IMG/VR virus record: IMGVR_UViG_3300020464_000002
Coordinates: 1,326-65,325 of that record
Direction: 5' to 3' (one strand)
DNA: 64,000 bases
Source of the DNA: a virus
A program made the position numbers and the translations under genes. Positions 1,843 to 63,596 of the stretch are shown here, in pieces; within the stretch, counting starts at the first letter, position 1; the number at the start of each line of letters is the position of its first letter. The notes beneath the pieces were generated by a model that worked only from the letters and a program-made list of their open reading frames with translations, did no database searches and was not told where the DNA came from.

Positions 1843-1865
1843 CCCTTATATCATAGATTGCCAAT

Positions 1866-1939
1866 GGAACACCCCTAAAAGCCCCGCCTAATAACTTGTC
1901 AAAATAGCCTTATCACTCATTCATTGATAAGGCTTTTTT
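1866..1939 (+). promoter_or_regulatory. late promoter-leader module 1
   Basis: GGAACACCCCTAAA at 1866-1879; TGtCAAAAT with hexamer at 1900-1905 (offset 34); inverted repeat AGCCTTATCA 1906-1915 / TGATAAGGCT 1925-1934; T5; ATG 1940. Confidence 0.6.
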
Positions 1940-2560: not shown

Positions 2561-2569
2561 GGCGGCCTT

Positions 2570-3064
2570 GTGAGCGTTAATGATACAGACGTGAATCACG
2601 TCATTGGCACGATCGAGGATGCAGCCAATGATTTGTATGAGGAGCTTTTAACGACTGGTTATTCTTTATTGCTCAGCGATGTGGTTAAGGTTTTTATTAT
2701 CAATACCAAAAAATACGCGGGGTGGTCAGGCGAGTTGCAGCATTGCCCCAAGAGCGATGAATCATGCGTAAAACCGTTGTTGGAGATCGATCAAAACACG
2801 GTTTTGGGGGTGGATGACTGGGTGATTGTTGAGCCAGTTATCCGCGCTCATTGCGATCTCGTTCAGGCGCGGCGTATGGAGGGGGCGCAGAATTTAGGCG
2901 TTCAACCCGCTGGCATGTCGTCAAGCGAGGCACGCCAGCTATACGATGATGCGGTAAGGACAATGCAAAAAGAGGCGTTTCAATTCCAGCCGTTTAGTAT
3001 TGAGATACCTAAAGACGACCCGCGCTACCCTGAGACTAGCCCTTGGCTGGTATGGCAATCATAA
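2570..3064 (+). CDS. hypothetical virion-module protein
   Basis: GTG start 9 nt after the upstream stop, with AAGG upstream. Tightly packed in the late operon. Confidence 0.6.
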   Translation: MSVNDTDVNHVIGTIEDAANDLYEELLTTGYSLLLSDVVKVFIINTKKYAGWSGELQHCPKSDESCVKPLLEIDQNTVLGVDDWVIVEPVIRAHCDLVQARRMEGAQNLGVQPAGMSSSEARQLYDDAVRTMQKEAFQFQPFSIEIPKDDPRYPETSPWLVWQS

Positions 3065-3125
3065 GACATGGCCGCCGATCTACTGGCGGCCACACCCAAA
3101 TAACCATTACTTTTGAGACAAACGC

Positions 3126-4019
3126 GTGAATATTCAGCTTGAAGATGGTAGTCAAATTGGCGGCGGTAATCTAATCAGCGCAATCTATCGAACCGACCTT
3201 GTTCCAGTGCCAGTGACATTAGAGCTGGTGGTAAAGGCTGATGATAGATTGCGTGATTTATTTACCATTGGTCGCAAGATGACCACACCAAAAGGCGTGC
3301 CGCTGGTAATTGTTAAGTCGCAAGTGATCAATGAGCAGTCAATCAAGGCTGGCCGCCGTGTTGCGGCTATTCATGTGATCGCTATTATCGGTGGCTGTGA
3401 GGCACTGCTAGGCGTGACCAATAAGGCGGTGCATTTAGAGAACACCAATTTTAATGAAGTTTACCGCGCACTTGGCGCAAAGGTGAGAATCCAGCGTGAC
3501 GTTAAACTTGCCAGCTTTACTTGCTTAAAAGGGCAGTTACCAACCGCATCGATTGCATTGGCATTGCAGCGTGAGGCCGCCGTGGTATGCAACACCGAAA
3601 GCGGCTTATCTATCATACGCCTAAATGAGCTGATGGGCGGTGATGCGATCATGTTTGATAAAACCGCCGTCCAGTGGATCGACAATCCAAACGCCGTCAG
3701 GCATAGCAATGTCAACTACTTATCGATCGATGACAATGGATCGGACATTTTAGGCACGGCAAGGGCTGAGCGCTCAATACAGTATTATCCCCGCGCTGAT
3801 ACCCGCGAATTACAGAACCTACGCCGCATTTTAATCACTAAAGCCACGATCACCCGCCAGCTGGATGAGCGCTTGGACGCTGGCGCGATCATATCGGTTG
3901 ATGATCAATCATTAGTCACGCTCACTGGTGTTCACAAGTACGAAACAGGCGCTATGGGTGGTCGCTCAGTGGCCGCAACTAAGGCATGGCTGGCACAGGT
4001 CGAGGACGCTAAACAATGA
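3126..4019 (+). CDS. hypothetical baseplate-module protein (possible hub, gpD/Mu gp44-like)
   Basis: GTG start. The stop overlaps the start of the spike gene (ATGA), which supports a baseplate role. The hub call is only positional. Confidence 0.35.
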   Translation: MNIQLEDGSQIGGGNLISAIYRTDLVPVPVTLELVVKADDRLRDLFTIGRKMTTPKGVPLVIVKSQVINEQSIKAGRRVAAIHVIAIIGGCEALLGVTNKAVHLENTNFNEVYRALGAKVRIQRDVKLASFTCLKGQLPTASIALALQREAAVVCNTESGLSIIRLNELMGGDAIMFDKTAVQWIDNPNAVRHSNVNYLSIDDNGSDILGTARAERSIQYYPRADTRELQNLRRILITKATITRQLDERLDAGAIISVDDQSLVTLTGVHKYETGAMGGRSVAATKAWLAQVEDAKQ

Positions 4020-17025: not shown

Positions 17026-17101
17026 GGAACAGTGTAAAAGTTGCTAGCCGTTTACTTGTCATAATTGGTTATTGCTTTTTATAACCAATCGGACAGCATT
17101 T
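17026..17101 (+). promoter_or_regulatory. late promoter-leader module 4
   Basis: GGAACAGTGTAAAA at 17026-17039; TGtCATAAT with hexamer at 17060-17065 (offset 34); inverted repeat ATTGGTTAT 17064-17072 / ATAACCAAT 17081-17089; ATG 17102. Confidence 0.55.
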
Positions 17102-20100: not shown

Positions 20101-23100
20101 TAAACAAAACGATTCAGCCTACGCTAATAAAGACTTGCAAAAAGCCAATGAAAAAGCCAAGGGCATGATTGCTGAGTTAATCGATCGCCTATCGATGGAC
20201 ACCAACGCGCCATTTTTAGAAGACATGCGCGTTGATAGCGTGGTGATCGATGAAGCCCATGCGTTCAAAAACTCAATCAGTGCGCCCAATACAGACAACC
20301 GTATTAAGTACCTATCACAGCCCCAAGAGTCAGCACGCGGTGAGGACGCACAGGCTAAGTTATTTTACATACGCGGCCTGACCCCAGCCAATGACGGCGT
20401 GCAGCTGCTAACAGCAACACCTATCACCAACAGCCCCTTGGAGATCTACTCTATGCTATCGCTGGCTGGCGGTCGTGACACAGTAAATAAAATGTGTGGC
20501 GGTATTGTGGGTGCAGACGACTTTTTGGCCGTTATGTGCCAAATTGAAGAAGAAGTCGTACCAACGATTGACGGCAAGACGCGCTCACAAAACGTTTTTA
20601 CTGGCATTAGAAACGCGCAGATCTTGAAAAAAGCGGTACGAGCCAATGCCGTGATCAAGGACGCGCAAGACGTTGGCATGTCGGTTGTTATTCCCGAACG
20701 TGAAGAATTGGCAACCTCGGTCAATTTAGGCAAAGAGATTGACGGCCAGTTAAGAGAATTACAAGATGCGTATGTGGTAGCGCGTCAGATCGAGGCTGAA
20801 AAGCTGGACAATGAATTAAAAGACCCAACCCATCCACAAAGCCCATACAATCCAAAAAGCCCTTATAGCATTGTTGCTGGCAAGTACGGTGAAACCAACG
20901 ATCTAATAGCACACCCATTCAACCTGATCCGTAAGATGGACGTAATGATTGCCGATGCTGAGTTTAGCGAGGGTGTGACGTTTTATGACTTTGACGAAAA
21001 CCAACAGGCGATCGCTGAAAAGGTAGTGAACCAATTTAGCAACGGTAGAAAAAAACACACTGATGAACGTTCGCGCCCTAGCGCATACACTGCTGAGGAA
21101 GACGCTAAACCGATCTATAAGAAAGAAGACGGCGAACAGGTGCTAAAGGGTTATAAAATCGCTTGCAAGGCTAGAATTGTTATCCACAAAGGCCGTTCAC
21201 GTATTATGATTGACACAATCGAGAGCAAGTTTCAATCCAGTTTTGAGGCTATGGCCGATAAAGCCAAGCTAAATCTTGATGTTGCCGTGTCTGCTAAAGT
21301 TGCGGCCTTGCTTGAAAACTTTAAAAACGAACAGGCCAACCCGCGTGGGATCAGTAACGACAATACAACCAGCAAGATCGTTAAGCAGATCATCTTCTGT
21401 GATCACTTATTTTTGCATAACAAGATCAAGCGTGTTTTAATCAAACGCGCTGGCGTGCCAGCTAACAAGATCGTCATCATTACAGGACAGACAAATAACG
21501 ATCCTGACAAAATGATCGATATTCAAGACGGTTTTAACGCGTTTGGTGCAGATAATCAGTATCAAGTGGTTATTGCTAACAAGAAAGCTGAGGTCGGTAT
21601 CAACTTGCAACGTGGTACGCAAGCAATCCATCATTTAACGACTGGCTGGACACCCGACAGCTTAGAGCAGCGCAACGGACGCGGCGCACGCCAAGGCAAC
21701 AAGACAGAGAGGGTTAAGATTTTTCATTATGACGCGGACGGCACGTTTGATGAGTTTAAACGCACCATGATCGACAAAAAGGATGAGTGGATCACCAGCG
21801 TGTTATCAGATGAAGACACGAACACGATTGAGGTATCAGGCAGTATCACCCGCGCTGAGCAAGACGCGCTTATTCGTTTGGGTGGTGATCGTGAGGCCAT
21901 GCGTGCGTATCAAGCCGAGCGTGACGCACAAGAGGCGCAAGCGCGTAAGGAAGCCGCTATCAAGCGTCATAAAGTCAATATGCAAGTCGTTGATGAGCAA
22001 ACCAAGATTGTTAAAAAGCTCAAGATAGATGATTTTTATGAGAACGCTGTAAAAGAAGTCGTTAACCTCATTAAAGATAATAACGTTGTCTATAAGAAAA
22101 TACACGCTAACAAAAGCAGCGCCAGCACCAAAGCAAACAGCACCAAGCGTTACAATGCCACCAAGTCGGTTATCCTCGATAAGATCGAAGAAATTTTTGA
22201 TAACGTGAAATCACAGGCGGTAAATAGTAATTGGGTAGCAATAGAGAGTATCAGTCCTTATCGCGCCACTATTAGCGCTGAGGATGCCTATGATATCGTG
22301 CAAAACAACTTAGGTCGCGGCGAAAATTTTGCTAATGATAATAGTGGATCATGGGCGGTGCATTTTGCTCGTAAGATTTTAACCCATGGCGCTAATTTTG
22401 ATAGATCCAAAACTATTATCAACAGCGATGGTATTTATCAAGCCACGTATGATGAGATCAACACAACGGCTAGAAACCTCATTAAGCAAGCGCTACTAGC
22501 AGCAAATGAGTTGGCCGATCGTGCTGGCTTGGCTGGCATGACGATACCTGACGATGCAGGTAATTTAATTGCTGACGGTAAAGCGGTTATTCATGATGGT
22601 TTTTTCTTTATGGCTGGCTCGATTGCAATTAGCGATCAGTGGTCGCCAGTTAGAAAAGAGGACTTTTTATTTGCAATTAACGATAAATTGAGAGGCCACG
22701 CACTAACAAGCCGCGTAGATACAAGGGGCGTAACCGTTTATCAAAGCCCCGAAAGCTCACCTCAAGGCATAAAAGCAAAAGCAGTTATTCATCCAAACAC
22801 GCCTGAATACCTAGAATACGTTAAGGCTATGGCTAAGATTGAAGATGAGCACTACGGCGCAGGGCAGTTAAGCGAAGCCGTTTACAGTAATATCATTCCT
22901 CAAGTTGCCGAATATAGAGATAATAGTATTCAACCGTTGTGGCATTTAAGCCCTAATTTAGCTGGCCGTCAGGTTGGCTTATCAAATTGCGACTTCTTGG
23001 TGATGTTGCCTTATGAGGTTTTGGCCGCTGGCACGCCGTTTGCGAATAAAATGCTAAGCGACTATAGCGCCGCTGGCATTAGTATTGATCTTGATAGCAA

Positions 23101-23788
23101 AACTTATCAAGCGACTAACGACAAAGTGCAAATTAACGCCGATCAATACGATACGCAAATGATCCACGATCTTTATTACAGTTATGTTGGTTTAATGATT
23201 AAGCATAGCGGCGTTAAGTTAACCGCTGACGATAAAGCGCTAATGGGGCAACCTCAGATTATAGCTGAGCTATTAAAGGAACCAGCTGATCAGTTGATAA
23301 CCGCGCTTAGAGCCGCCGCCGACAGCATTACCGAGCGCCAAAGCAATCGAGTGTTAGAAGATATGGTCGTTAAATTGTTTGATGATCTTATTTATAGCGA
23401 TGAATATATGAGCGATGAGCCAACAGCCGATATGAAGATTTATACGCTAGAATATGTTTATGACGAACACTTAAACCGTCAAAATGTTTTAGATGCCGTG
23501 GACTTCTTACGGACTGAGAGCAGCAAAAACATTGCTGAGGCTAAAGTTAAGGCGATGGGCTTAGAGGCAAGCGCCGCTGGTATAAAAGACAGCGACACGG
23601 TTTACGTTAGCGGTGATACCCAAACGTACTATAAAACTATCAAGGCATACGGCAATAAAAACGGTGAGAAAGCAAGATATCAAGGCAATAAATACCAGTC
23701 GTGGGCGATGAGTTTTAGAGCCTACAAAGAAATGATAACCGCTAGACCTGAATTGGCTAATCTTTTACCTATGAGCAAAACACGATAA
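17102..23788 (+). CDS. DarB-like N6-adenine DNA methyltransferase + SNF2/DEAH helicase polyvalent protein
   Basis: MTase motifs LDPSAGTGVF and NVPFG. Helicase motifs GVGLGKT, VIDEAHAFKN, LLTATPITNS and QRNGRGARQG. The ATG at 17102 is chosen because the predicted TSS falls near the listed 17072 start. Confidence 0.85.
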   Translation: MKTDQTPSGTKAKFKNIADLQAALAKLQGATNTKDRLAATQGVVDVLKRIGSLRSITIQEAKNGKLDDDHDTPAPAAEKTPTSDIVDRTGMVELAGTSKRQAANNKAVELLAKIKAEGLTRDDLSSEQIETLAAYTGSGGGLISNKGKRGSAYEYYTPKAVASKMWELASEMGFTGGKVLDPSAGTGVFAATSPESAVIDSIELDEVSGGIASILNDGDRSNTVVSSFEKRNELIADDSLDMVMTNVPFGDNKTRGEHKMDDDAYQNESLETYFILRSLEKIKHGGLAVFITPTSVISGKKGDKERLRKLTSLKAELLGAYRLPNKVFEQTGADVMTDIIVYRKHSREATDQINALYEAGDMDTLAKTKVMWDEYISGAYFKNPIHKAKFMLGNEVQVPSRFNPEEMVTALSNPKPTPEIMKDIKKFGGSRIDWEALGAAEAAYIEYNNGDVIFQNGKQLEYQDGRWHVMAAEPTDSDREMQKALANMGSAIEMVVAGMTFDMMDRVNSYTLTTGQADLIPRAARSLFNRTLVVAPKMRAAAWNCVIAAQAIKDVIAEQDYGYDFMTNEPALTSFMKTAFLDGKNTKLTKEPKQDFNFVKLYYDNGKYNAVWRGQIDTEVEVKDEARSYTSLIARMQYDNKSLYLSREQLAKVNPDTDPLTDNEWFINHDGSQVIAASDFLTGSLSNCLAKIDEQIKQATDSKIIAKLEQQKLFATENVTRINLQSVDFDLRSPLISAEDKVRFLKQSVHKDAYISFDEYGKGTPDIDVKGGNLRDEEKLYNRIGDWLAKGTVTTGGVTLSRMTEREALDWMSEQINVANVKFSSWVKANDKLMASLERTINHNDNLFFSQNSDESPVEIAGMNPQLKLHGYQNAFVRSQGRHFGGINGMGVGLGKTFSSLSSTQHAHNIGAKKKTIFVVPNSVLSNWRKEVDFAYTSTDDCLFVGLREKGDQFRVYSNKYDEDLLKAVDSKYRKIFMTYEAFKRIRLKDETIADYARYVKQNDSAYANKDLQKANEKAKGMIAELIDRLSMDTNAPFLEDMRVDSVVIDEAHAFKNSISAPNTDNRIKYLSQPQESARGEDAQAKLFYIRGLTPANDGVQLLTATPITNSPLEIYSMLSLAGGRDTVNKMCGGIVGADDFLAVMCQIEEEVVPTIDGKTRSQNVFTGIRNAQILKKAVRANAVIKDAQDVGMSVVIPEREELATSVNLGKEIDGQLRELQDAYVVARQIEAEKLDNELKDPTHPQSPYNPKSPYSIVAGKYGETNDLIAHPFNLIRKMDVMIADAEFSEGVTFYDFDENQQAIAEKVVNQFSNGRKKHTDERSRPSAYTAEEDAKPIYKKEDGEQVLKGYKIACKARIVIHKGRSRIMIDTIESKFQSSFEAMADKAKLNLDVAVSAKVAALLENFKNEQANPRGISNDNTTSKIVKQIIFCDHLFLHNKIKRVLIKRAGVPANKIVIITGQTNNDPDKMIDIQDGFNAFGADNQYQVVIANKKAEVGINLQRGTQAIHHLTTGWTPDSLEQRNGRGARQGNKTERVKIFHYDADGTFDEFKRTMIDKKDEWITSVLSDEDTNTIEVSGSITRAEQDALIRLGGDREAMRAYQAERDAQEAQARKEAAIKRHKVNMQVVDEQTKIVKKLKIDDFYENAVKEVVNLIKDNNVVYKKIHANKSSASTKANSTKRYNATKSVILDKIEEIFDNVKSQAVNSNWVAIESISPYRATISAEDAYDIVQNNLGRGENFANDNSGSWAVHFARKILTHGANFDRSKTIINSDGIYQATYDEINTTARNLIKQALLAANELADRAGLAGMTIPDDAGNLIADGKAVIHDGFFFMAGSIAISDQWSPVRKEDFLFAINDKLRGHALTSRVDTRGVTVYQSPESSPQGIKAKAVIHPNTPEYLEYVKAMAKIEDEHYGAGQLSEAVYSNIIPQVAEYRDNSIQPLWHLSPNLAGRQVGLSNCDFLVMLPYEVLAAGTPFANKMLSDYSAAGISIDLDSKTYQATNDKVQINADQYDTQMIHDLYYSYVGLMIKHSGVKLTADDKALMGQPQIIAELLKEPADQLITALRAAADSITERQSNRVLEDMVVKLFDDLIYSDEYMSDEPTADMKIYTLEYVYDEHLNRQNVLDAVDFLRTESSKNIAEAKVKAMGLEASAAGIKDSDTVYVSGDTQTYYKTIKAYGNKNGEKARYQGNKYQSWAMSFRAYKEMITARPELANLLPMSKTR

Positions 23789-24980: not shown

Positions 24981-25030
24981 CATTAACGAACACTAACGAA
25001 CATTGACAAGCATCAACAAACATCGTAATA
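24981..25030 (+). repeat. phased 10-bp repeats CA(T/C)(T/C)(A/G)AC(G/A)A(A/G), 5 copies
   Basis: cattaacgaa, cactaacgaa, cattgacaag, catcaacaaa, catcgtaata. Same family as 24881-24920. Confidence 0.55.
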
Positions 25031-25074
25031 ATGCACACAGAACACACACGGCCTTACACACAGGAATTGCAACT

Positions 25075-26238
25075 ATGATCACTAAAGACAGTCAGGTTAA
25101 GTCTTTAAAACCTAAAGAAAAAAGGTACACTAATGCCGCTGGTGACGGCTTGTTCCTTGATGTTATGCCAACTGGTAAGAAATCATGGACGGTGGCGTAC
25201 AGCAAGAACGGTAAACGCACACGAACCAAGATAGGTACTTATCCAGTATTGTCATTAAAGGATGCACGCGTATTAGCTCAGGATCTACAACGTCAAGCAT
25301 TGTTAGGTTATAGCGATATACTGATGAAAGATCTTGTTAAGGAATGGTTATCAGTTTATAGCCCTAACTGGACGAGTAAAAAATATGAAAAAAATGTAAT
25401 TCATCGACTAGAATTGGTCACAGAGCGCATAGCTGACGTGAAAGCAAACGAGGTGACACGCTCGATGATCTCGGATGAGATAGGGCTAATTGTAGGCAGG
25501 GGTACGATAGAAACGGCCAATCGTTGCTTGCGGCTTATTAAAACCGTCTTTGATTATGCCGTAGCTAAAGAGTATGTTGAGACCAACCCATGCACATTGG
25601 TTAGCAAGATGATACCCGCTAGAAAGGTCGTTAATATGGCCTCATTGCCGATCAGCGAAATGCCTAAATTTTGGACAGCGCTTAACTATATGGACATGGC
25701 TTATGAAACTAAGCAAGCAATAGCGCTTTATAATTATCTTGCTTGCCGACCAAGTGAGCTGGTAAAGGCGCGATGGGATACTGGTGAGTTTGACTTAGAT
25801 AAGGGTGTTTGGATTATCCCAAAACACCGTATGAAAATGCGGCTTGAGCACATGATACCGCTAACCGAAAAACCATTACAGATACTCAGAGATCTATACG
25901 ATCGCCGCATTGATGATGAGTTTGTTTTTAAGAAAAAAAATAAGCCTTGGGAACACATGCCAACAGAAACGCCGCTGGCAGCGGTAAAGCGAGCTGCTGG
26001 TAATGGTAAGATGACAACACATGGTTTTAGATCGCTACTATCAACCAATGCGAACGAGGCCAAACTAGCGGACGGCACGCGCATGTTTCATGAAGACATT
26101 ATTGAGCGTCATTTAGCACACGTACCGCATAATAAAGGCCGCGCCGCTTATAATCGCGCTAAATACTGGAATGACAGGGTAAGGTTGATGGAATGGTGGG
26201 CGGCGATTGTTACGCCATGGATTGAACCTGAATCTTGA
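25075..26238 (+). CDS. int: tyrosine integrase, P4-type
   Basis: N-terminal KSLKPKEKRYTNAAGDGLFLDVMPTGKKSW (P4-int arm-binding domain pattern); CRPSEL, HGFRS, HLAHV..AAYNRAKY catalytic blocks. The ATG at 25075 with an AGGA SD is preferred to the listed 25003. Confidence 0.9.
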   Translation: MITKDSQVKSLKPKEKRYTNAAGDGLFLDVMPTGKKSWTVAYSKNGKRTRTKIGTYPVLSLKDARVLAQDLQRQALLGYSDILMKDLVKEWLSVYSPNWTSKKYEKNVIHRLELVTERIADVKANEVTRSMISDEIGLIVGRGTIETANRCLRLIKTVFDYAVAKEYVETNPCTLVSKMIPARKVVNMASLPISEMPKFWTALNYMDMAYETKQAIALYNYLACRPSELVKARWDTGEFDLDKGVWIIPKHRMKMRLEHMIPLTEKPLQILRDLYDRRIDDEFVFKKKNKPWEHMPTETPLAAVKRAAGNGKMTTHGFRSLLSTNANEAKLADGTRMFHEDIIERHLAHVPHNKGRAAYNRAKYWNDRVRLMEWWAAIVTPWIEPES

Positions 26239-54053: not shown

Positions 54054-55868
54054 ATGGATAAGAAGCAAGCAGCAGTATTTGACGCAGCAGCACATAAAGA
54101 AGTACAGGCAGTACGCCGCCTGATGCGTTCTTTAGAAAACAAGGGCAATAGCAGCGATCAAGTCGCCGCGTTTGACTCGATGCTGGCAAGCAACCCCCAA
54201 GGCCGTGAGGCAGCAATGAGCGAGCTACCCGAGTCGCTACAGCGTATCTTAAACAGTAAATACATGGCAGAAGACAAGCAAGCCGTTTTTGATGGTTTAG
54301 AAGACGGTATTATTGAATTTAAACGCCGTAATGGTGGTGAAATGCCGTCAGAGTACGCGATTGCCGCCGCATTGACCACAGCCGCCGCGCCGTTTGGTGG
54401 TGCTGAAAAATACGATAGCAACTCAGAGCCTACGTTTGATAGCCTATCACTAGGTCATCATGAAGCGTTGTCAGTCGTGCCAGCCGCAACTCAAGTCATT
54501 ATCGCGTACGGTATCTCTAACTCACTACCACTGCTATCGATGTTACCTAACCCAATGGGTAGCAACGAATTGCCGATCGTTTATGGTACAGCTGTTGCCG
54601 GCTTAGACATGGGCGTTATGCGCCGTGGTGAATTGATGGACGGCGACAAAGCGGGTATGCCATACCTAGAAAACCGTCATACATTGACCATGGAAAAGAC
54701 CGCCGCTGGCACGTTCACGCTAGAATCTCATGTCGCTTATACCGCTGAAAAGCGCGGCGATAAAACTGTTAAATTTACCGTTGATAAAACCTCGTCACTT
54801 GCGCCGTTCTTAGGCGGCCGTGTTGTCGTTATGATCAAGGGCATTGAGATCGCCAACGACAAGCACCGTGATCACCCGACTAAGGGTGGCCGTAGTGTTC
54901 TACAGCCGCTAGATCCAGTTGATATCGGTACAGATACTTATATCGTAACAACCGCTGTGGCTGATCTTGACACGTACACTATCGAAGTGAATTTTGATAC
55001 GACAAACGGCGTTGATCCTGAGCCTGATGACGTGAGCATTGAGCTTATCTTTGACTACGAGCGTAAAGACAGCAACGGCAACAATATTTTGCGTGAACCA
55101 TCGGTAGATATGGAGTTTTTACACCGTTCTATCTATGCAGCCCCTCATCGTTCGCGTTCTACCGCAACAATCGATGCGATCACTCAGCTATCGAATGAGC
55201 TTGGTATCAACTGGTACGGAGCCGCGCAGACAATCGCTATGCAGCGTTACTACTTTGAGCAGACAGGCCGCTTATTGCGCACCGCGTTTAATATGTGTCT
55301 ATCGGATCAAAACCCAAAAACTGGCCGCGTGGTGACGTTTGACTTTAACAAGACTGGTGTGTCACCGACCAACCTAGCGGATGCGTTTTCTAACGTCAAT
55401 ATTACGTTAGGGCTGGCGCGTACTCGCTTGTCTCGCGCTATTAACACAGCGATTGCAGGTTACGATCTGTATGTATCAGATCGCGGCGCGGCGTTCTTCT
55501 CAGGCATGGGCGGCCAAAACTACGAATCAACAGGCGTACCGTTTGGTGATCAGTATTCCGTCTACCGTATTGGCCGTCTTAAAAACAACGGTGCAAACGT
55601 CTATTACGTTCCATCAAGCATGGGCGTATTTGATGAAGAAACGGACACCACCACAGCACACGCATTGTTAGTGCCACGCGCTATCACGCCAGCACAAGCG
55701 CCGTTTGTTGGCTTTACCGCAGTACCGCCAATGGTGCTAACGTCAAATGCCACCGCGTTTGAAAAAGACGTGGCGATCTACAGCCGTATGGCTGGCGAGG
55801 TTAACCCGCTACCTCGTTATCGCAATCAGTGCATGTTGATTGAAATGATCAACTTGCCAGCGCTTTAA
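54054..55868 (+). CDS. major capsid protein candidate
   Basis: Monocistronic unit bracketed by a late promoter and the strongest terminator in the window, the expected arrangement for the most abundant virion protein. No motif-level support. Confidence 0.4.
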   Translation: MDKKQAAVFDAAAHKEVQAVRRLMRSLENKGNSSDQVAAFDSMLASNPQGREAAMSELPESLQRILNSKYMAEDKQAVFDGLEDGIIEFKRRNGGEMPSEYAIAAALTTAAAPFGGAEKYDSNSEPTFDSLSLGHHEALSVVPAATQVIIAYGISNSLPLLSMLPNPMGSNELPIVYGTAVAGLDMGVMRRGELMDGDKAGMPYLENRHTLTMEKTAAGTFTLESHVAYTAEKRGDKTVKFTVDKTSSLAPFLGGRVVVMIKGIEIANDKHRDHPTKGGRSVLQPLDPVDIGTDTYIVTTAVADLDTYTIEVNFDTTNGVDPEPDDVSIELIFDYERKDSNGNNILREPSVDMEFLHRSIYAAPHRSRSTATIDAITQLSNELGINWYGAAQTIAMQRYYFEQTGRLLRTAFNMCLSDQNPKTGRVVTFDFNKTGVSPTNLADAFSNVNITLGLARTRLSRAINTAIAGYDLYVSDRGAAFFSGMGGQNYESTGVPFGDQYSVYRIGRLKNNGANVYYVPSSMGVFDEETDTTTAHALLVPRAITPAQAPFVGFTAVPPMVLTSNATAFEKDVAIYSRMAGEVNPLPRYRNQCMLIEMINLPAL

Positions 55869-55896: not shown

Positions 55897-55932
55897 GCCT
55901 TGCTGTCATGAGTGGCAGCAGGGCTTTTTTTA
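55897..55932 (+). terminator. strong intrinsic terminator
   Basis: 12-bp stem AGCCTTGCTGTC / GGCAGCAGGGCT (2 G-U pairs), 6-nt loop, T7. The listed ATG at 55908 lies at the loop/stem boundary. Confidence 0.75.
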
Positions 55933-55967
55933 AATCTATTTTTAACCAATACCCAAGGATTACCGAT

Positions 55968-56663
55968 ATGACAGACGTTAAGCAATTACCTGAAAATCTT
56001 GATCAACTAGAGCAGCTGACAGAGTTCAAACGCGTGTATAAAAAATACACCGCTGATCAGCTGGAAGATCTATTGACCGAAGCTGAGGTGGATTACCTAA
56101 GCGCTGACAACAAGTCAGAGCTAACATGGCGCTTACTGGATCATCAGGGCTTTGATTTTGAAGCCGCGCTTGCCGAAGAAAACAGCGATCAATCAGCACC
56201 GCAAGATGAGCCAGTACCAGCGGATGATAAGAATGATGCCAATGAAGACGTACAGACGGTTCAAGATGATGCTGATAGCGAGCAAGGCGATCAGATCGAT
56301 AGCGAAGCAAACGCCGATCTTGGTTCAGGTGGTGAAAGCACTGACGACAGCGAAAAATCTAGTCAAATGGATAACGTTACCAACGATTATGCGCCGTCAG
56401 ATATTAGTAACGGCAATGACGCTAACGCAAACGAAGTTGAGCAACCAGCAGAAGCGGCAGATCAGCCAGTGAAAGAGAAAGATCATGTGGCCGTTTTTAA
56501 TACTGGTGCGTGGCCTTTTTTCGAGACAGCGACCAGCACGCTAGTTCCCGCTAAGAAGACAACTAAGATCTATCCTACGGCCTCAGTCGATAAAGATCGG
56601 ATTTTGCGTAATGTGGAGCAGTACAACCACACACGCGGTAATAAATTGCGCGTTATTAATTAA
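55968..56663 (+). CDS. acidic protein with N-terminal HeH/Rho-N-like helix pair
   Basis: The ATG at 55968 with an AAGGA SD is preferred to 55908. YTADQLEDLLTEAEVDYLSADNKSELTWRLL is followed by a long D/E-rich tract. Confidence 0.5.
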   Translation: MTDVKQLPENLDQLEQLTEFKRVYKKYTADQLEDLLTEAEVDYLSADNKSELTWRLLDHQGFDFEAALAEENSDQSAPQDEPVPADDKNDANEDVQTVQDDADSEQGDQIDSEANADLGSGGESTDDSEKSSQMDNVTNDYAPSDISNGNDANANEVEQPAEAADQPVKEKDHVAVFNTGAWPFFETATSTLVPAKKTTKIYPTASVDKDRILRNVEQYNHTRGNKLRVIN

Positions 56664-56734: not shown

Positions 56735-57823
56735 ATGATCAACAGCAAAACACTAGGATCAGCCGCCGGTATTCAATACCAAGGCGTGATCGACAACTCA
56801 GAGGGTACGAATCTACCATCACTGGCTAATGGCGTGGTCATTGGCAAGTTTAAGCGCGGGCGCATGGATAAGCCGTTTAAGGTGACTGCTAGCAACTACA
56901 AGGCATTGCTTGGCCGCGATCCATCTAACCCTAGCTACTTAGCCGTAGAGGACGCCTTTAAGCGCGGCGTTAGCGAGGTTAGTATTTTGCGCATTGGTGG
57001 CACTGGCGGCGCAGCAAAGCCCATCCCAGTTAACACAGGAACCGTTATTTTTAGCGTTGAGAGCTACGAGAACCCATCTAGTGAATATCCAGTATATATT
57101 TATATTGAAAATCCAGTTGGCGACTGGACGCTAACCGAGGCGGGCGAGTTAATCGCTGATTCAACAGGGTTTGCCGCTGACGGCGTGGATTTGGATATCT
57201 ATGACGGCGGCGCTGATATTCTCTTTACGGTTGTTACGCCCGACAAGCGATCTTTTGAGCTTGATGTAACCGCCGAATATGCCGATATTTCTTATGATGG
57301 ACAGCATAACTTTCATAGCCCAAACAGCGATGTGGCTACCTTAGATCCGCTAGGCGAGGTTGTTATCAGTCAATTTTCGTCAAAGATACCTAGTTTTTCA
57401 ACAGCATTTTTCAACACGCTTTTAACCGTGCCTGAACATATACCGCCTGAATTGGTCGATATCAGTTATTTATTTTTCGAAGCCTCGCGTTTTAACCAAA
57501 ACATAAGTATGTGGGATGTAAGTCACGTACTCAATATGAATAGCACTTTTTATAACGCTAAGATTTTTAACCAAGATCTATCTAATTGGTGTACGCCTAA
57601 TCTACCGTTCGGTGGTGTAGATTTTGATACTGGCGCCGATGCGTGGTTATTGCCTAGACCAGTTTGGGGTACTTGTCCACGCAGAGAGGGCGGCGCGACT
57701 GATTATGTTTTTGATCCATTGCTACCAAGCCAGCCGCCGAGCACAGATAGCAGTTATATCCGCATAGCACCAGTAACGCCGATAGACGGCTGGCATGATG
57801 CGTCAAATAACATGACAACATAA
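56735..57823 (+). CDS. sheath-N-terminal-domain paralog A fused to BspA/DUF285-type repeats
   Basis: Residues 1-90 are conserved in 59082 and 60331 and resemble the T4 gp18 N-terminus (GKFKRGRMDKPFKVT..LLGRDP..FKRGVSEVSILRIG). The C-terminus has FNQNISMWDVSHVLNMNSTFYNAKIFNQDLSNW. Confidence 0.5.
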   Translation: MINSKTLGSAAGIQYQGVIDNSEGTNLPSLANGVVIGKFKRGRMDKPFKVTASNYKALLGRDPSNPSYLAVEDAFKRGVSEVSILRIGGTGGAAKPIPVNTGTVIFSVESYENPSSEYPVYIYIENPVGDWTLTEAGELIADSTGFAADGVDLDIYDGGADILFTVVTPDKRSFELDVTAEYADISYDGQHNFHSPNSDVATLDPLGEVVISQFSSKIPSFSTAFFNTLLTVPEHIPPELVDISYLFFEASRFNQNISMWDVSHVLNMNSTFYNAKIFNQDLSNWCTPNLPFGGVDFDTGADAWLLPRPVWGTCPRREGGATDYVFDPLLPSQPPSTDSSYIRIAPVTPIDGWHDASNNMTT

Positions 57824-57832
57824 GGGTGATTC

Positions 57833-58969
57833 ATGACTACTATAGCAGCTTGTTTAAAAGTAAAAATAAACAATCAGGAGGCAAAGCTAAATAGTTTTGT
57901 TGATCTAAATTTTAATAACTTGTCAGACATTAGCACTGAACAGCTAGCGGTCGTTAGATTGCTTAAAAACTATCTTGGTGGGTTTTTTAGATGGTCGCAA
58001 CTATTGCCTGATAGAGAGCTTGGTATCATGGATGGTGTTGGCGGTATGGGTGGCGAGCCAGCAGATAAAAGCGGGTTTTACATAGGCACTATCAATATGC
58101 GCGAATATCCGTTCTCATTCGCCGCTTTCGATGAGCAGCAATTTAGATCAGCGATTAGTGAGGTTGAAGATGTATTGAAACTCTTTAATTTTGACGAGCT
58201 TGTCAATGCCGCCAGCCTTGAGGATTTGCAGCAGTTGATCGATAATGAGATCAATAGTAGCAACCCAAAATATACGGTTACGGCTCACACAGAGCCAGTC
58301 ACCTTGCGTATATTGCGTTGCACACAGAGCGATATTAACTCTATCGCCGTAGACGGTGCGCCGCCTCATGTGGATATGTTCGATTCATTAGTGCAGATGC
58401 TACCGCACCACTCACCAACACTGGACAAGGCCGATTATGCGCCAGCTTATTATGACGCTGGATTTGATCAGATTATTTTTAAATCTAAGTTTGGCTTGCA
58501 TCAAAAGCTGGCGGGTTCTAATGATGACTTTGTTACTAGCGTTACAGTCAGTAAAGACCTGATTAATGACACTGTGACAAATTATCTTTTTTCATATCAG
58601 ATTAACGATAGACCTATTGTTAGAGCTAGTTTTGACGGCAGTAGCTTTATGCCAACCTCGCTTGCGGACTATATCGTATGGCACATGCCTGATGATCATA
58701 TATTCAAGTTTGATTTTGACCGACACCCTAGCGATAACGAGATTTTACAGCCGTTTTGGATCAACAACGAAAGCGATGCTAACGGTAATTATGTTTTCTC
58801 AGGCTTAGACGGTACGGAGAATATACCCAATGTAACGCTATTTGAGCAGCAAAACACTCTTAAATTCTTATTAACGCCTGATGCGACTAATGATAATGAC
58901 TTAGTACGCATACTATTCGGTGGTGATATTGAAATCAGATCGTCTTTTGCCTCAAGTGGATCTCAATAA
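57833..58969 (+). CDS. hypothetical protein, paralog of 59480..60202
   Basis: Shared blocks: AACLKVKINN / AACAKMQVNN, TLRILRC / TLRIMPC, PHVDMFDSLV / PRVDIFNLV. Confidence 0.6.
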   Translation: MTTIAACLKVKINNQEAKLNSFVDLNFNNLSDISTEQLAVVRLLKNYLGGFFRWSQLLPDRELGIMDGVGGMGGEPADKSGFYIGTINMREYPFSFAAFDEQQFRSAISEVEDVLKLFNFDELVNAASLEDLQQLIDNEINSSNPKYTVTAHTEPVTLRILRCTQSDINSIAVDGAPPHVDMFDSLVQMLPHHSPTLDKADYAPAYYDAGFDQIIFKSKFGLHQKLAGSNDDFVTSVTVSKDLINDTVTNYLFSYQINDRPIVRASFDGSSFMPTSLADYIVWHMPDDHIFKFDFDRHPSDNEILQPFWINNESDANGNYVFSGLDGTENIPNVTLFEQQNTLKFLLTPDATNDNDLVRILFGGDIEIRSSFASSGSQ

Positions 58970-59009
58970 TTTTTTTAAAGTTATCGTCAGGCATCCAAGC
59001 CTAGCCTTT

Positions 59010-59081
59010 GGAACACCCTAAAACCCTAACCTCGACAAAGCCTATACTGAGTCATAAACCACTCAGTATAGGCATTTTATT
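59010..59081 (+). promoter_or_regulatory. late promoter-leader module 9
   Basis: GGAACACCCTAAAA at 59010; TATACT at 59043-59048 (offset 33); arms GCCTATACTGAG 59040-59051 / CTCAGTATAGGC 59062-59073; ATTTTATT; ATG 59082. Confidence 0.6.
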
Positions 59082-59429
59082 ATGATCGAGAGTAAAACAC
59101 TAGGTAGCGCCGCTGGCGTGCAGTATCAGGGCGTTATCGACAAGACAGAAACAAACAGCTTGCCGTCATTGGCCAATGGCGTGGTCATTGGCAAGTTTAA
59201 GCGCGGCCGTATGGACAAGCCGTTTAAGGTGACTGCCGTCAATTATCAGGCATTGCTAGGGCGTGATCCGATGAATCCAAGCTACTTAGCAGTAGAGGAT
59301 GCCTTTAGGCGCGGTATTAGCGAGGTGAGCGTATTGCGCGTTGGCCAAACGGGCGGCGCGTCAGTTGTGGAGGTCGAAAAATACAGCTATCTTGATTTAT
59401 CGCTACCCTTGCCGCCAGCCGTCGCTTAA
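59082..59429 (+). CDS. sheath-N-terminal-domain paralog B (short, 115 aa)
   Basis: The first 90 aa are highly similar to the first 90 aa of 56735 and 60331. Only a 25-aa tail follows. Confidence 0.5.
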   Translation: MIESKTLGSAAGVQYQGVIDKTETNSLPSLANGVVIGKFKRGRMDKPFKVTAVNYQALLGRDPMNPSYLAVEDAFRRGISEVSVLRVGQTGGASVVEVEKYSYLDLSLPLPPAVA

Positions 59430-59479
59430 ACCTACCGCAATAATAAACATGAATTTTTAATAAATATAAGGATTTTCTT

Positions 59480-60202
59480 ATGGCTAACGAATGGTTTTAT
59501 GCAGCATGTGCAAAAATGCAGGTTAATAACAGTGAGCCTTTCATACTATCTTTTGAAGATACTGCTTTTAGAGATATGGCTGAACAAATACCCAACGTAG
59601 ATTTTAACGATTTATGTATTTTTGCTTTAATTTCGCCATTTTTCACCCCCAATGTAACAAATATGGATCAAAATTGGTCGGCACGCTTGCCGCGCTTAAA
59701 TTTCACTGCCATTCCTGAAGATATGGTCATGTTAGGCCGGCAGGTTAATAGCCTATCTAACCCTTATCCCGAAAACCGCACTGGTCTTGTTTGTTTTACT
59801 AAAGAATCGTTTAAGGCGCTCATGATGCAAGAGCCGCCCACTACGGACATGACGCCACAGGAGTGGCAAGACTTGGTAATTAGCACACCATTTGATGAGC
59901 TACAATCTCTACTAGAAACGTTTGGATCATCACCTTTCAAGATTAATGGTACGAGATCAACGCTCAGAATAATGCCATGTAGTCGAGAAGAAATAAAGAG
60001 CCTTGATCCGTACGGCGGGCTTGATGCGCCGCGTGTAGATATTTTTAACCTTGTTAAAGAGCGTTTAACCAATACGGTTAAACAGCTTGACGATAAGGGT
60101 TTAGAGCCAGCCAAATACTATGCAGGCGGCAATTATATCGAGTTTGTTGCGGAGTGTTCGATAAGTATTTCTGAGACTATGCCTACTAACCCACAGTTAT
60201 GA
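59480..60202 (+). CDS. hypothetical protein, paralog of 57833..58969
   Basis: See 57833..58969. AAGGA SD. Confidence 0.6.
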   Translation: MANEWFYAACAKMQVNNSEPFILSFEDTAFRDMAEQIPNVDFNDLCIFALISPFFTPNVTNMDQNWSARLPRLNFTAIPEDMVMLGRQVNSLSNPYPENRTGLVCFTKESFKALMMQEPPTTDMTPQEWQDLVISTPFDELQSLLETFGSSPFKINGTRSTLRIMPCSREEIKSLDPYGGLDAPRVDIFNLVKERLTNTVKQLDDKGLEPAKYYAGGNYIEFVAECSISISETMPTNPQL

Positions 60203-60258
60203 TAAGGATTAGCTTGACAGGTGAGTAGCTGGTGTCGAGCGAACCCGATTCAAGCTAT

Positions 60259-60330
60259 GGAACACTGCTAAAGCCACAAGCCAAGCCAAGCCTATACTGA
60301 GCTATTACTACTCAGTATAGGCTTTTTATT
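60259..60330 (+). promoter_or_regulatory. late promoter-leader module 10
   Basis: GGAACACTGCTAAA at 60259; TATACT at 60293-60298 (offset 34); arms at 60290-60301 / 60311-60322; T5ATT; ATG 60331. Confidence 0.6.
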
Positions 60331-61143
60331 ATGATCAACAGCAAAACACTAGGATCGGCCGCCGGTATTCAATACCAAGGCGTTATCGATAAGACAGAAA
60401 CAAACAGCTTACCGTTATTGGCCAATGGTGTGATCATTGGCCGGTTTAAGCGTGGGCGTATGGATAAACCATTTAAAGTGACTGCTAATAACTACCAATC
60501 GTTGCTAGGCCGCGATCCGTCTAATCCTAGCTACTTAGCGGTTGAGGACGCGTTTAAGCGTGGTATCAGCGAGGTTAGTATTTTGCGCGTTGGCGGGCGG
60601 GCAGCTGGCGATGGTTTAGGCGATGGTTTAGGCGATGGAGGATTGGGCGGCGGCAGTGGTTGGAGTGATATTGATTTCGTTGGATCGGTGGGCGGTATGT
60701 CGATTGGGTACGAGATGGGTTATCTTTATATATTTCAATACCAAATTAATGATGAAACGCCGGTTATTGTAGAAGTACCCGCCAACCGGACTGAATTGGT
60801 GGGTACTAACCTTGGGATGCTTGTCGTTGACTTCACCCCCAATGTTTTTAAAGATTCAGCAAGCGGTGATCCGTATGAGTATTGGATGGAATGGGAGGTT
60901 CAAGAAAACTCTAATTGGATTACTCTAAAAGGTCTAAGATCCGGATATACCGCGCCGCAAATGGATTCAATGCTGGAAAATAATATACTTAGAATAACAG
61001 AGGTTTCGGAAGAGGAGCGCTACTCTATATCCATTAACAATCCTAATCTAACAACCTATGATATAGGGCTAAATAATAACACTGCTGAAATGGGTGTGAG
61101 GTCAGAAATTAGGGTTGTAGCGCCGGATCTAGGTGCTGTGTAA
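60331..61143 (+). CDS. sheath-N-terminal-domain paralog C with GDGL-repeat linker and distinct C-domain
   Basis: Conserved N-terminal 88 aa, then GDGLGDGLGDGGLGGG (12-bp DNA repeat). YIFQYQINDETPVIV resembles YLFSYQINDRPIV of 57833. Confidence 0.5.
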   Translation: MINSKTLGSAAGIQYQGVIDKTETNSLPLLANGVIIGRFKRGRMDKPFKVTANNYQSLLGRDPSNPSYLAVEDAFKRGISEVSILRVGGRAAGDGLGDGLGDGGLGGGSGWSDIDFVGSVGGMSIGYEMGYLYIFQYQINDETPVIVEVPANRTELVGTNLGMLVVDFTPNVFKDSASGDPYEYWMEWEVQENSNWITLKGLRSGYTAPQMDSMLENNILRITEVSEEERYSISINNPNLTTYDIGLNNNTAEMGVRSEIRVVAPDLGAV

Positions 61144-61153
61144 ATAAGGCATT

Positions 61154-61226
61154 GGAACACCCCTAAAGGCCTAAAGCAAACCTTGCCTATACTGAGTTGA
61201 TACCAACACAGTATAGGCATTTTATT
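61154..61226 (+). promoter_or_regulatory. late promoter-leader module 11
   Basis: GGAACACCCCTAAA at 61154; TATACT at 61188-61193 (offset 34); arms GCCTATACTGAG 61185-61196 / CACAGTATAGGC 61207-61218 (1 mismatch); ATG 61227. Confidence 0.6.
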
Positions 61227-62615
61227 ATGAGCGCTCAGATCCTTTATTTAAGTATTCTAGCGTCTTCCATGGCACTGACGGAATCGCCCGATCCCGCAGC
61301 GCTGGCAAGCGTAGAGCTTGTCACGGAATACGCTTTTGATTCAAACGTTGTGGCAAAAGTCATGGTGGTTGATCAAAAAACCTTTACCACTGCCGCCGAC
61401 CCCTTAAACAACCTTGTTTTTAAGATCAGCTTTAACGACAAGATCGATGGCAGTACGCTAACAGAATTACAAGGCCGTTTATACACTGGCGGCGGCGTTG
61501 AGGCGCTAGAAGAAAACCATGCCGATGACTTTAGTTACGTCACAGGTAAGCTAGACTTTCACGGCGCATTAGATAGCCAGTATGACTTTTTCGAGTCCGT
61601 CACGACCAGTTATAGCGCAAGCAGTGCAGCAGCGATCAAAACAGCGCTTGAAACCGTGGGCGCATTAAACGAGCTTGGCGCTTATCGCACCAAACAAGTT
61701 GAATTGGCCGTACCAGCTAGCACCGTAACCGACCTGACACCAAAAGAGCTTAAAAACGCGTTGTTAGACATGCGCGATCGTCCACGCTACCTAGTCACTT
61801 GTGACGTGGCCAGCTTACCCCATATTGAAGCGCTGGCAGAGGTGATGGGTAAGATCAACTGTCACGTATTGCTTGATATTGGCAATATCACCGACTGGCA
61901 ATCAGCCGTAGCGTTAACTGAGACATTGAGCATTAACGATCACCGTTTTTGGGTGTTTTGGAACCCTAATAAGTCACGTCCAAGCAATGCAACAACCGTG
62001 CTGGCGCGTAAAAAATGGCGACCGTGTGTTGGTGATTACCTCGCTCAATTATTGTTGCGCAACGCGGCCACCAATGCCGCTGGCATCCCGCCAATCTATC
62101 GACCAATCGCAGGTTACGACTTCCCAGTGGCGTTCCGCGATATGGAAAAAATAGGCGGTTTAACGCTGGATGAAGAAGCACAAAACGCGCTTGCCAGTGC
62201 TGGCGTGAACGTGGTTATTAATGAGCGTTTTGAGGGCGGCGATCGCTGGATCTATGGCGATGCGTTGACCCAGTATGACAGCAAGACCAGCGCCTTGCGC
62301 CTGATCAACTCATCCGAGATTGAGACTTATACCGCCAATGTTGTGATCGGCATTGCTAAAAAGCACTTGCTAAAAGGTATGAGTAGTTATGTCAAAGATG
62401 CGACCAATGAGTGTGAGCGCTTTTTGGATTCATGCGTTGTTGATGATAGTGGTAAGGGCTTGTTGGTGCAGTCGTCAGAGCTTGGCGGTCGTTATTATGC
62501 GCTAAGTATTACGCCACGCGCTGACGATCCATTCAGTAAAGTAGATATCAAGTTTAGCCGCCGTCCGCAAGGTTGTGCACGCCAAGCATTTTTAGAAACC
62601 ACAGTAACGAAGTAA
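61227..62615 (+). CDS. tail sheath core protein (gp18-like middle and C-terminal domains, N-terminal segment absent)
   Basis: KKWRPCVGDYLAQ..PIAGYDFPV..LASAGVNVVINERFEGGDRWIYGDALTQ..LRLINSSEIE aligns by eye with T4 gp18 NRWVPLAADIAG..SPAGYNRG..AINPVTGTGGDGYVLYGDKTAT..DRINVRRLFN. The ATG at 61227 is chosen because 61197 lies in the leader hairpin. Confidence 0.6.
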   Translation: MSAQILYLSILASSMALTESPDPAALASVELVTEYAFDSNVVAKVMVVDQKTFTTAADPLNNLVFKISFNDKIDGSTLTELQGRLYTGGGVEALEENHADDFSYVTGKLDFHGALDSQYDFFESVTTSYSASSAAAIKTALETVGALNELGAYRTKQVELAVPASTVTDLTPKELKNALLDMRDRPRYLVTCDVASLPHIEALAEVMGKINCHVLLDIGNITDWQSAVALTETLSINDHRFWVFWNPNKSRPSNATTVLARKKWRPCVGDYLAQLLLRNAATNAAGIPPIYRPIAGYDFPVAFRDMEKIGGLTLDEEAQNALASAGVNVVINERFEGGDRWIYGDALTQYDSKTSALRLINSSEIETYTANVVIGIAKKHLLKGMSSYVKDATNECERFLDSCVVDDSGKGLLVQSSELGGRYYALSITPRADDPFSKVDIKFSRRPQGCARQAFLETTVTK

Positions 62616-62696: not shown

Positions 62697-63596
62697 ATGT
62701 TAAACCCAATGATGAACCAACGCCGCCGTGATCGTAACCATGAGCGCCAACAAGCCCAGTTTGATGCAATGAATCCAAAAGATGCCGCCGACAAGTTGGG
62801 CGCTGATCGAATCAGCGAACGTATGGCGATTGCGGCCACCAGTCAGATGCGTATTCAGGCGCTATCGGTTGTCTTTATGCTTGCCGCCACGCTGTCAGAA
62901 GCCGATTATGACGATGAAGATATCCTACCAAGCGAAGTGCTAGACGCGCTGATGCTTGAAGCGTTTGTTGATGATGACGATGAAGATATCGACGGTATCG
63001 ATGAAGACGTTAAAGTCGTATTTTCAGCCCACGTAGCAGACGCGCTATCAACCCTTGGCGTTGAAGACTCAGTAATTGATGATCTTTTTGATGATGATGT
63101 TGAAGTAGCAGATGCAGCAGCCCTTGCCGCCGCCGAAACGGTACTAGAAAACATGCCCGATGATGGTGATGATCTTGATGTGTTTGTGGCCGCATTTGCT
63201 TATAGCGATGAAGACGTGGACGCTGCCGAAGAATCAGGCGCGTTTGATAGTATTGATGATCAAGAACCGCAGTTTGATGCCGCTCGCAAGAAATTGCGCG
63301 TTGGCAAAAAGACCGTGAAAAAGGTCAACGGTAAAACGCTTACCTACAAAGCGGTTAAGGCTATTCGTAACGGTAAAAAAGTCACGATCAATAAGCGCAT
63401 TGGGGGCAAACCGCTACTCAAAGCTGGCCAAAAAGCCGCGCTTAAAAAAGCACGCCGTAAAGCGGGTACTGGTTCCGCGATCAAGAAGCAAATGAAGTCA
63501 TTTAGTAAAGGTATGCGCATGAACCTTTACAAAGGCAATAAAAACCGCCTAAAAGCCTTACAAAAAGCAGGGGCAGCGCGTTATTTTAACTCTTAA
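62697..63596 (+). CDS. bipartite acidic/basic virion protein
   Basis: D/E-rich centre and K/R-rich C-terminal 100 aa. Followed by a terminator. Confidence 0.5.
   Translation: MLNPMMNQRRRDRNHERQQAQFDAMNPKDAADKLGADRISERMAIAATSQMRIQALSVVFMLAATLSEADYDDEDILPSEVLDALMLEAFVDDDDEDIDGIDEDVKVVFSAHVADALSTLGVEDSVIDDLFDDDVEVADAAALAAAETVLENMPDDGDDLDVFVAAFAYSDEDVDAAEESGAFDSIDDQEPQFDAARKKLRVGKKTVKKVNGKTLTYKAVKAIRNGKKVTINKRIGGKPLLKAGQKAALKKARRKAGTGSAIKKQMKSFSKGMRMNLYKGNKNRLKALQKAGAARYFNS

Follow-up and report, generated by a model that had tools for sequence, protein, structure and literature searches.

A described relative of the locus considered here is the tail sheath gene of phage P1. In its product, gp22, residues 3–34 form the N-terminus, which pairs strands with the C-terminus of the neighbouring subunit (the 'handshake'); domain II is composed of residues 35–99 and 243–425, domain III (residues 100–242) lies outside the sheath, and domain I (residues 426–516) is followed by the C-terminus (residues 517–528) (PMC10304247). 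Apart from the handshake sheets, subunits have no obvious contacts with one another, and the termini act as hinges in contraction (PMC10304247). In a survey from 2022 that covers 112 phage sheaths, sheaths of two proteins are mentioned for type VI secretion systems (T6SS) only (PMC9230969). In the T6SS sheath TssB1C1, strand β1 of TssB is the handshake donor, strands β2–β3 interlace with five strands of TssC into the seven-stranded sheet of domain 2, and the TssB C-terminus is located in the outer domain 3 (PMC5807055). The extracellular contractile injection systems (eCIS) AFP (Afp2-4) and PVC (Pvc2-4) use several gene products per sheath, and the P1 paper contrasts them with the one-protein sheaths of phages (PMC10304247). 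Our literature search found no description of a split phage sheath. Here we analyse a stretch of viral DNA of 64,000 nucleotides (nt) (IMG/VR record IMGVR_UViG_3300020464_000002, positions 1,326 to 65,325; hereafter, the window). At positions 56735–62615 of the window, the tail sheath appears to be divided between one gene for a large subunit, called the core, and three genes for small subunits, which share an N-terminal module and are called N362, N115 and N270. These genes and the neighbouring Y genes and hairpins described below all lie on the plus strand.

The core (462 amino acids (aa); 61227–62615) matches the 'tail sheath' profile phrog_1036 at positions 105–531 of 531 (E 6e-60), and the module matches the same profile at positions 6–91 (E 1e-9 to 2.5e-9). 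The two parts are complementary: only the products of a module gene and the core gene together cover the profile over its whole length. The N- and C-terminal arms do not lie on one polypeptide, the N-arm being on the small proteins and the C-terminal strand on the core. The core starts at the equivalent of approximately residue 100–105 of the fused sheaths, which is the first strand of the outer domain III, and it contains domain III, the remainder of domain II, domain I and the C-terminal arm. An earlier note, made from the letters of this DNA alone, had claimed that the downstream open reading frame (ORF) lacks the N-terminal segment and begins about where the module ends. The profile positions of the two parts agree with this claim, and the 462-aa protein has no N-terminal strand of its own. 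The core and its fused homolog have no significant Pfam family.

Using BLASTP, we aligned residues 5–67 of the three window modules to residues 7/8–71 of P1 gp22 with an identity of 31–36% (pairwise E 1.5e-5 to 1e-3), and the hidden Markov model (HMM) of the module aligns to gp22 residues 8–67. Since the module aligns to these gp22 residues, it corresponds to the handshake arm and the first segment of domain II. The chain break is at the junction of domains II and III, within a linker that is flexible in the models made with AlphaFold2 (AF2).

N362 (362 aa; 56735–57823; module HMM E 1.7e-47), N115 (115 aa; 59082–59429; E 1.7e-48) and N270 (270 aa; 60331–61143; E 3.5e-47) are paralogs 1, 2 and 3 of the small sheath subunit. 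They have residues 1 to approximately 92 in common, with 69 invariant columns, so the N-terminus of about 90 aa that the earlier note saw in the ORFs at 56735, 59082 and 60331 is indeed shared. Over the first 88 codons, the copies are 84–89% identical in protein and 78–83% identical in nucleotide sequence. At the DNA level, the module is a 288-nt direct repeat in three copies, each starting 24 nt 5' of the ATG. The pairwise number of synonymous substitutions per site (dS) is 0.8–1.2, and its non-synonymous counterpart (dN) gives a dN/dS ratio of 0.08–0.10. Thus, the module copies are of old origin, and strong purifying selection acts on each of them. The repeat is neither due to chance nor a recent duplication.

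Beyond the module, the three proteins are unrelated, except that the C-terminal domain of N270 is shared with Y378, the product of a neighbouring gene. In N362, the module (56735–57010) precedes an extension of 270 aa, in which a DUF285/BspA-type repeat lies at aa 241–288 (Pfam DUF285, E 2.6e-14); an ortholog with 72% identity occupies the same position in Psychrobacter sp. T6-6. The 'bare' subunit N115 consists of the module and a 20-aa tail. Its exact sequence was found on 11 contigs from several sources, and its stand-alone relatives from Psychrobacter and related bacteria (78 clusters) are 55–158 aa long, nearly all of them 89–133 aa. The tail of N115 (59366–59429) carries a short motif, …Y-S-Y-L/F-D/V-L…, which is conserved after the module in the 'bare' forms of 110–130 aa and is absent from the small subunits of about 92 aa. 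N270 is composed of the module, a Gly/Asp-rich linker and a domain of about 150 aa related to the C-terminus of Y378. Its counterpart is absent from the otherwise collinear T6-6 prophage.

A natural fusion of the two parts exists. In the database protein P0101 (544 aa), the first 95 or so residues share 40% identity with the module, and what follows aligns with the core; on its contig, the module and core matches are collinear in one gene. Together with the matches to phrog_1036 (6–91) and P1 gp22 (8–71), this confirmed the sheath homology that the earlier note had ascribed to the 90-aa module. That note had arrived at it by an alignment with T4 gp18 made by eye, which is only weakly borne out: the Pfam family Gp18_domIII_N matched 7 of 17 module sequences below the threshold, with a best E of 0.003.

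The AF2 model of P0101 has a predicted local distance difference test score (pLDDT) of 83.8. Residues 1–27 are disordered in it, residues 30–92 form a confident strand-strand-helix-helix-strand unit, residues 93–108 form a low-confidence linker exactly at the split point, and the outer beta domain with the remaining protein extends from residue 108 onward. When the model was searched with Foldseek, the best match was P1 gp22 (E 1e-17), followed by about 40 sheaths, including those of T4, phi812, phiKZ, pyocin, AFP and PVC. We also joined residues 1–96 of N115 directly to the 462-aa core in silico and modelled this fusion with AF2, using an alignment of cores, modules and three natural fusions as the input. 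It turned out that the mean pLDDT (86.9; predicted template modelling (TM) score, pTM, 0.86) is higher than for the natural fusion P0101. The module has a pLDDT of approximately 90–94 at residues 31–80 and 87 at residues 81–90, and the first 27 residues are disordered. Foldseek matched this model to P1 gp22 with E 1e-19 and a TM score of 0.61–0.65 over about 560 columns. By AF2 and Foldseek, domains I and II and a variable outer domain are found in the models of both P0101 and the N115–core fusion. As far as the predicted structure goes, it shows N115 and the core to be compatible as one P1-like protomer in the form of a covalent fusion. The fold was reached through AF2 and Foldseek because, when the PDB was searched by sequence and by profile, neither the core nor the module nor the family alignment had a match even at E 10.

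The split sheath genes noticed earlier are present in the window and are not peculiar to it. In the database search, 107 of 108 core homologs lack the module (the one fusion is P0101), and 104 start no more than 10 residues from the same profile position. These homologs come from Psychrobacter, Faucicola, Moraxella, Acinetobacter and metagenomes. Judging by these sequences, a large clade of Moraxellaceae phages and prophages has the split as a fixed and widespread trait. In six of the seven split loci retrieved via the core (loci are numbered L002 to L024 here), module genes are found together with the core, as they are in further loci retrieved via the module; a narrower-alignment locus search with the module recovered only Psychrobacter and Acinetobacter loci.

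A phage with the same split, Acinetobacter phage vB_AbaM_ABMM1 (ABMM1), has been isolated. Its GenBank record (OQ471969) contains two coding sequences named 'tail sheath protein', gp12 and gp14, which are a 431-aa core and a 92-aa module protein. Transmission electron microscopy shows both relaxed and contracted tails of ABMM1, and the authors list both products as tail sheath proteins without comment on the split (PMC10345192). Thus, a phage with this split has a contractile tail.

The position of the module gene relative to the core varies. In Moraxella L007 and in L009, a metagenome contig, the module gene has its own Shine–Dalgarno (SD) sequence and adjoins the start of the core: in L009 the genes overlap, and in L007 the module gene ends 9 nt before the core start. 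In Faucicola L006, one gene lies between the module gene and the core. Psychrobacter sp. T6-6 is collinear with the window and has two paralogs, of 363 aa (with DUF285) and 118 aa. Three long forms of 252, 245 and 261 aa precede the core in tandem in L011 (a 3.8-kb contig; 538–3763), and module proteins of 366, 202 and 194 aa are encoded in tandem in L023 (10007–12826). No short module gene is present in the sequence available for L011 and L023, which bears on the need for a bare subunit. The module gene is located 3' of the core and the gp21 homolog in ABMM1 and L016, and at least 8 kb downstream of the core in L019 and L023. Short partial module matches lie beside intact module genes in L014 (1077–1220), L021 (3917–3982) and L024 (9625–9795); they resemble traces of earlier duplication or recombination in the cassettes.

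The module is also found far beyond the short proteins. An exhaustive search with the module HMM among 1.84 billion representative proteins gave 339 clusters at 50% identity, and the best 150 of them were analysed. The search of a word-indexed database had returned short proteins only, and the long forms surfaced only in the exhaustive HMM search. In the best 150 clusters, the module match begins at or near the N-terminus, mostly in the first 8 residues and in no case after residue 37. The sheath core is absent in 147 and present in 3 of these best 150 of 339 clusters, and the 147 core-less proteins are 69–1106 aa long. We scanned the extensions of 119 long module proteins (117 hits and N362 and N270 of the window) against Pfam. 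DUF285 was found in 8 of them, PKD_3 and BiPBP_C in 4 each, LRR_5 (BspA type) and I-set in 3 each, IG_AIR9 and Ig_3 in 2 each, and Laminin_G_3 in 1. Domains of these families are typical of display or adhesion. A conserved anchor module is combined here with variable Ig, PKD, leucine-rich repeat (LRR) and lectin-type domains, as in display proteins. The three alternative N-terminal fragments reported for the window are one case of a far larger radiation of module proteins.

We consider it rather likely that, in this phage, the core and a small subunit, which comes in three versions, form the sheath protomer as a non-covalent heterodimer, and that the tails are mosaics. The core would supply domain III on the outside, the larger part of domain II, domain I facing the tube, and the C-terminal strand of the handshake. 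The small subunit would co-assemble with it in trans and would supply the flexible N-terminal handshake arm (approximately residues 1–27), and its strand-strand-helix-helix-strand segment (approximately residues 30–90) would complete domain II of the core. The arm is expected to pair with the C-terminal strand of the neighbouring core and to add to the hairpin of the subunit in the next ring. With these pairings, the mesh that transmits contraction would be held through the split-domain interface, as in TssB/TssC, and the module is predicted not to be dispensable for assembly. The C-terminal extensions should project from the tail surface, since the small subunit ends where single-chain sheaths enter domain III. 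N115, N362 and N270 would all be used and would compete for the same site on the core. Such competition would make the tails mosaics of bare and decorated protomers, and the decorated ones would most likely provide weak adhesion to the host or to environmental surfaces. We give about even chances to the broader proposal that a two-component sheath of the TssB/TssC type is common to the whole clade, that the small subunit radiated into interchangeable adaptors (the 339 clusters), which would show Ig, PKD, LRR or lectin domains along the tail, and that a single phage, having one to three paralogs, makes tails that are adhesin-coated mosaics. The split phage sheath as such is well supported in silico and, biochemically, is a prediction.

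Mosaic tails would not arise if N115 alone filled nearly all the sheath positions, with N362 and N270 placed at a few special sites, for example the ring below the neck or beside the baseplate, or present in trace amounts. The stand-alone forms, mostly of 89–133 aa, are the commonest relatives of N115, and the short form is the sole module form in the simplest loci (L007, L009, L016 and ABMM1). The terminal sheath ring of P1 handshakes with the terminator, so that the end positions are structurally special (PMC10304247). However, L023 (366, 202 and 194 aa) and L011 (three proteins of 245–261 aa) show long forms only. In addition, the module is no less constrained in the long forms than in N115, and the module sequence gives no distinction between them. 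We regard this explanation as plausible, though rather unlikely. It is improbable that the module proteins are not parts of the sheath at all, the core alone being the sheath and the module being recycled, for example, in surface proteins of lysogenic conversion. The domains of the long forms (BspA/LRR, Ig and lectin) are indeed those typical of proteins on bacterial surfaces, one of these forms bears such a name at NCBI, and L008 has a core with no module gene nearby. But the module is always at the very N-terminus, no signal peptide is present in the sequences read, and the module genes are part of the late structural operon, where they stand between the capsid and core genes. Module and core genes also co-occur across genera. 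A sheath made of the core alone would be without the arm that makes half of each handshake sheet (PMC10304247) and would miss part of the domain II fold.

A single-chain sheath could still be produced if the module were joined to the core by recoding (frameshift, read-through or bypass) or by RNA splicing, and the gene overlap in L009 and the 9-nt distance in L007 would suit such a mechanism. The reading frames of N270 and the core differ in the window, and stop codons and a strong hairpin lie in the 83 nt between the two genes. Rfam gave no intron and no other RNA family. The core gene has its own conserved start context, including the SD sequence before the core ATG in L007 and L009, and the module gene of ABMM1, L016, L019 and L023 is located downstream of the core, at a distance of up to 8 kb. 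Joining of the two chains in this way is thus very improbable. The direct repeats with their shared upstream element and the short module remnants, for example in L014 and L021, could also suggest that duplication or recombination has left the module copies behind as decaying 5' fragments, or that they are an assembly artefact. We consider the chance of this negligible: all three ORFs are intact, dN/dS is about 0.1 at a dS of about 1, and the same genes occupy the same positions in independent genomes, the exact N115 being present on 11 contigs.

Several points weigh against the two-chain, mosaic sheath. The AF2 model is that of a covalent fusion, not of a complex, and was judged without contacts or the predicted aligned error. 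For this phage and its relatives alike, we infer that the small proteins are in the virion and bound to the core. The ABMM1 paper reports mass spectrometry, but its text is silent on which bands were identified (PMC10345192). In Acinetobacter chengduensis L008, there is no module gene within 10 kb of the core, even at E 50; the distance of at least 8 kb in L019 and L023 shows that module genes can lie far from the core. Conversely, the module loci L022 and L024 have no core within 10 kb. Finally, the 1106-aa module protein is called 'BspA family leucine-rich repeat surface protein' in the NCBI naming, which makes a non-virion role of the long forms conceivable.

By its gene content, the window phage is a temperate P1-related myophage with an integrase. 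The major capsid protein gene (54054–55868, plus strand; phrog_1014, E 2e-84) corresponds to P1 gene 23, which is directly 5' of the sheath gene. Downstream of the core lies the gene of a 299-aa homolog of P1 gp21 (62697–63596, plus strand; BLASTP to P1 gp21 E 1.3e-8; phrog_1053). In P1, the gene order 23-22-21 is that of capsid, sheath and gp21, gene 21 being next after the sheath gene. The tail tube protein is encoded at 1940–2560 on the plus strand (phrog_1120 tail tube, E 7e-35), and the window also contains portal, terminase, tape-measure, baseplate and PmgG-like genes. Since the tail tube gene and other tail genes are present, the phage has a complete contractile-tail module. The synteny around the split genes is P1-like: the capsid gene lies upstream of them and the gp21 homolog downstream, and the same window has genes for the tube, baseplate and tape measure. 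No second sheath gene was found within the window. Megablast of the sheath region against 50,697 phage records gave no match.

Other genes of the window were also recorded. Positions 17072–23788 encode a DarB-like methyltransferase/helicase (antirestriction) of 2238 aa, and positions 25003–26238 encode a tyrosine integrase; by its virion and Dar genes the phage is related to P1, yet it bears an integrase. Between the capsid gene and the first module gene, positions 55908–56663 encode a very acidic low-complexity protein of 251 aa, which matches no family and has a counterpart with 59% identity in T6-6. The relative with a fused sheath has a 106-aa gene at this position.

Three of the genes in the sheath region are preceded by a hairpin with a T-run. 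It lies at 59040–59073 before the ATG of N115 (13 bp; z −6.8), at 60288–60324 before the ATG of N270 (z −4.3) and at 61184–61219 before the ATG of the core (z −4.2). The hairpin (GCCTATACTGAG...CTCAGTATAGGC) has 13–14 perfect pairs and is followed by the T-run and then the ATG, with no SD sequence; TGGAACAC is located approximately 30 nt upstream of each of the three hairpins. The element is kept 5' of the core gene in L002, L010, L012, L015, L016 and L006. It resembles an intrinsic terminator, yet it occupies the position of a ribosome-binding site, and it has no match among the Rfam families. A P1-type late promoter was ruled out, because the element is unlike the P1 −22 boxes and is too close to the ATG. 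The hairpin also bears on the start of the core. The TTG at 61197, which would give a 472-aa ORF with an extension at 61197–61226, is an artefact of the ORF finder, as it lies inside the conserved upstream hairpin. The spacing between the hairpin and the ATG at 61227 equals that of the N115 and N270 ATGs. In the database homologs P0029 and P0058, the hairpin region has been translated into the same spurious extension of the N-terminus.

Two unannotated genes, which we call Y378 and Y240, follow the module genes. Y378 (57833–58969) is next after N362, and Y240 (59480–60202) is next after N115. The N-terminal part of Y378, about 220 aa, is paralogous to Y240 (BLASTP E 3e-10 over about 220 residues), and this paralogy indicates that the duplicated unit consisted of a module gene and a Y gene. 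Every Y gene in the Psychrobacter loci examined is directly 3' of a module gene. The C-terminal domain of Y378 is similar to the C-terminus of N270 (BLASTP E 7e-5), and this sharing suggests that domains may have been swapped between the Y proteins and the small sheath subunits. Neither Y protein has a Pfam, PHROG or NCBIfam match, and their relatives form only 11 clusters among 5.8 billion proteins, all the named ones being from Psychrobacter. The assumption that Y is a diverged sheath domain was rejected, because Y has no profile similarity to the sheath (hhalign probability 0.9%).

If the two-chain sheath is correct, the sheath of a virion can receive its handshake arm in trans, and the rule of single-chain phage sheaths may fall. 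Within one family, the fission can be traced from the fused proteins of P1 and P0101 through the abutting genes of L007 and L009 to the genes separated by an insert in L006. The later stages would be the duplicated, decorated or relocated small subunits of the window, T6-6, L011, L023 and ABMM1. This series provides a concrete model for the possible origin of TssB/TssC. The small subunit would also be a natural high-copy display site for foreign domains along the tail that leaves the core untouched, which may be used in the engineering of phages and tailocins. Moreover, many 'BspA-like surface' or 'hypothetical' proteins of Psychrobacter and Acinetobacter may be sheath subunits of prophages.

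The sheath of the window belongs to the same family as P1 gp22 (PDB 8JAN, 8JAJ and 9AY3; phrog_1036) and shares its fold, synteny and handshake elements. P1 gp22 is one chain of 529 aa, whereas in the window the equivalent of approximately residues 1–99 is on a separate polypeptide in three versions; set against P1, the window phage also has an integrase. ABMM1 has the same split as the window, but with a single bare small subunit located downstream of the core and the gp21 homolog, and it has neither decorated paralogs nor Y genes. The paralogous gene products Afp2-4 and Pvc2-4 of the eCIS are complete sheath protomers and are not known to be complementary fragments of one protomer. In phages with display domains, a mixture of bare and decorated subunits is typical. 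In T4 Hoc, variable display domains are carried by a conserved virion-binding module (PMC10385173). In contrast to the accessory binder of Hoc-type display, the anchor in the window would be a load-bearing piece of the sheath, and the mixture would come from paralogous genes, not from frameshifting.

TssB/TssC (VipA/VipB) is a two-chain sheath, in which the small chain contributes the handshake strand of the N-terminus together with some strands of the middle domain, and the large subunit gives the remainder including the C-terminal strand. For the protomer of the window, the gene split and its mapping onto P1 gp22 predict the same division. The likeness to the T6SS sheath pointed out in the earlier note holds for the split topology when the P1 gp22 mapping (PMC10304247) is compared with the TssB1C1 description (PMC5807055). 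Neither the module nor the core has a match to the Pfam families T6SS_VipA or VipB even at E 10, and no T6SS genes (Hcp, VgrG, TssE-M or ClpV) are present in the neighbourhood, the locus being a phage structural operon. The fused relatives P1 and P0101 suggest that the split arose within the P1-like sheath family. Unlike the T6SS sheath, that of the window stands in a virion context and has no domain 3 for ClpV recycling, and the small subunit of this phage clade occurs in multiple copies, with extensions that vary greatly.

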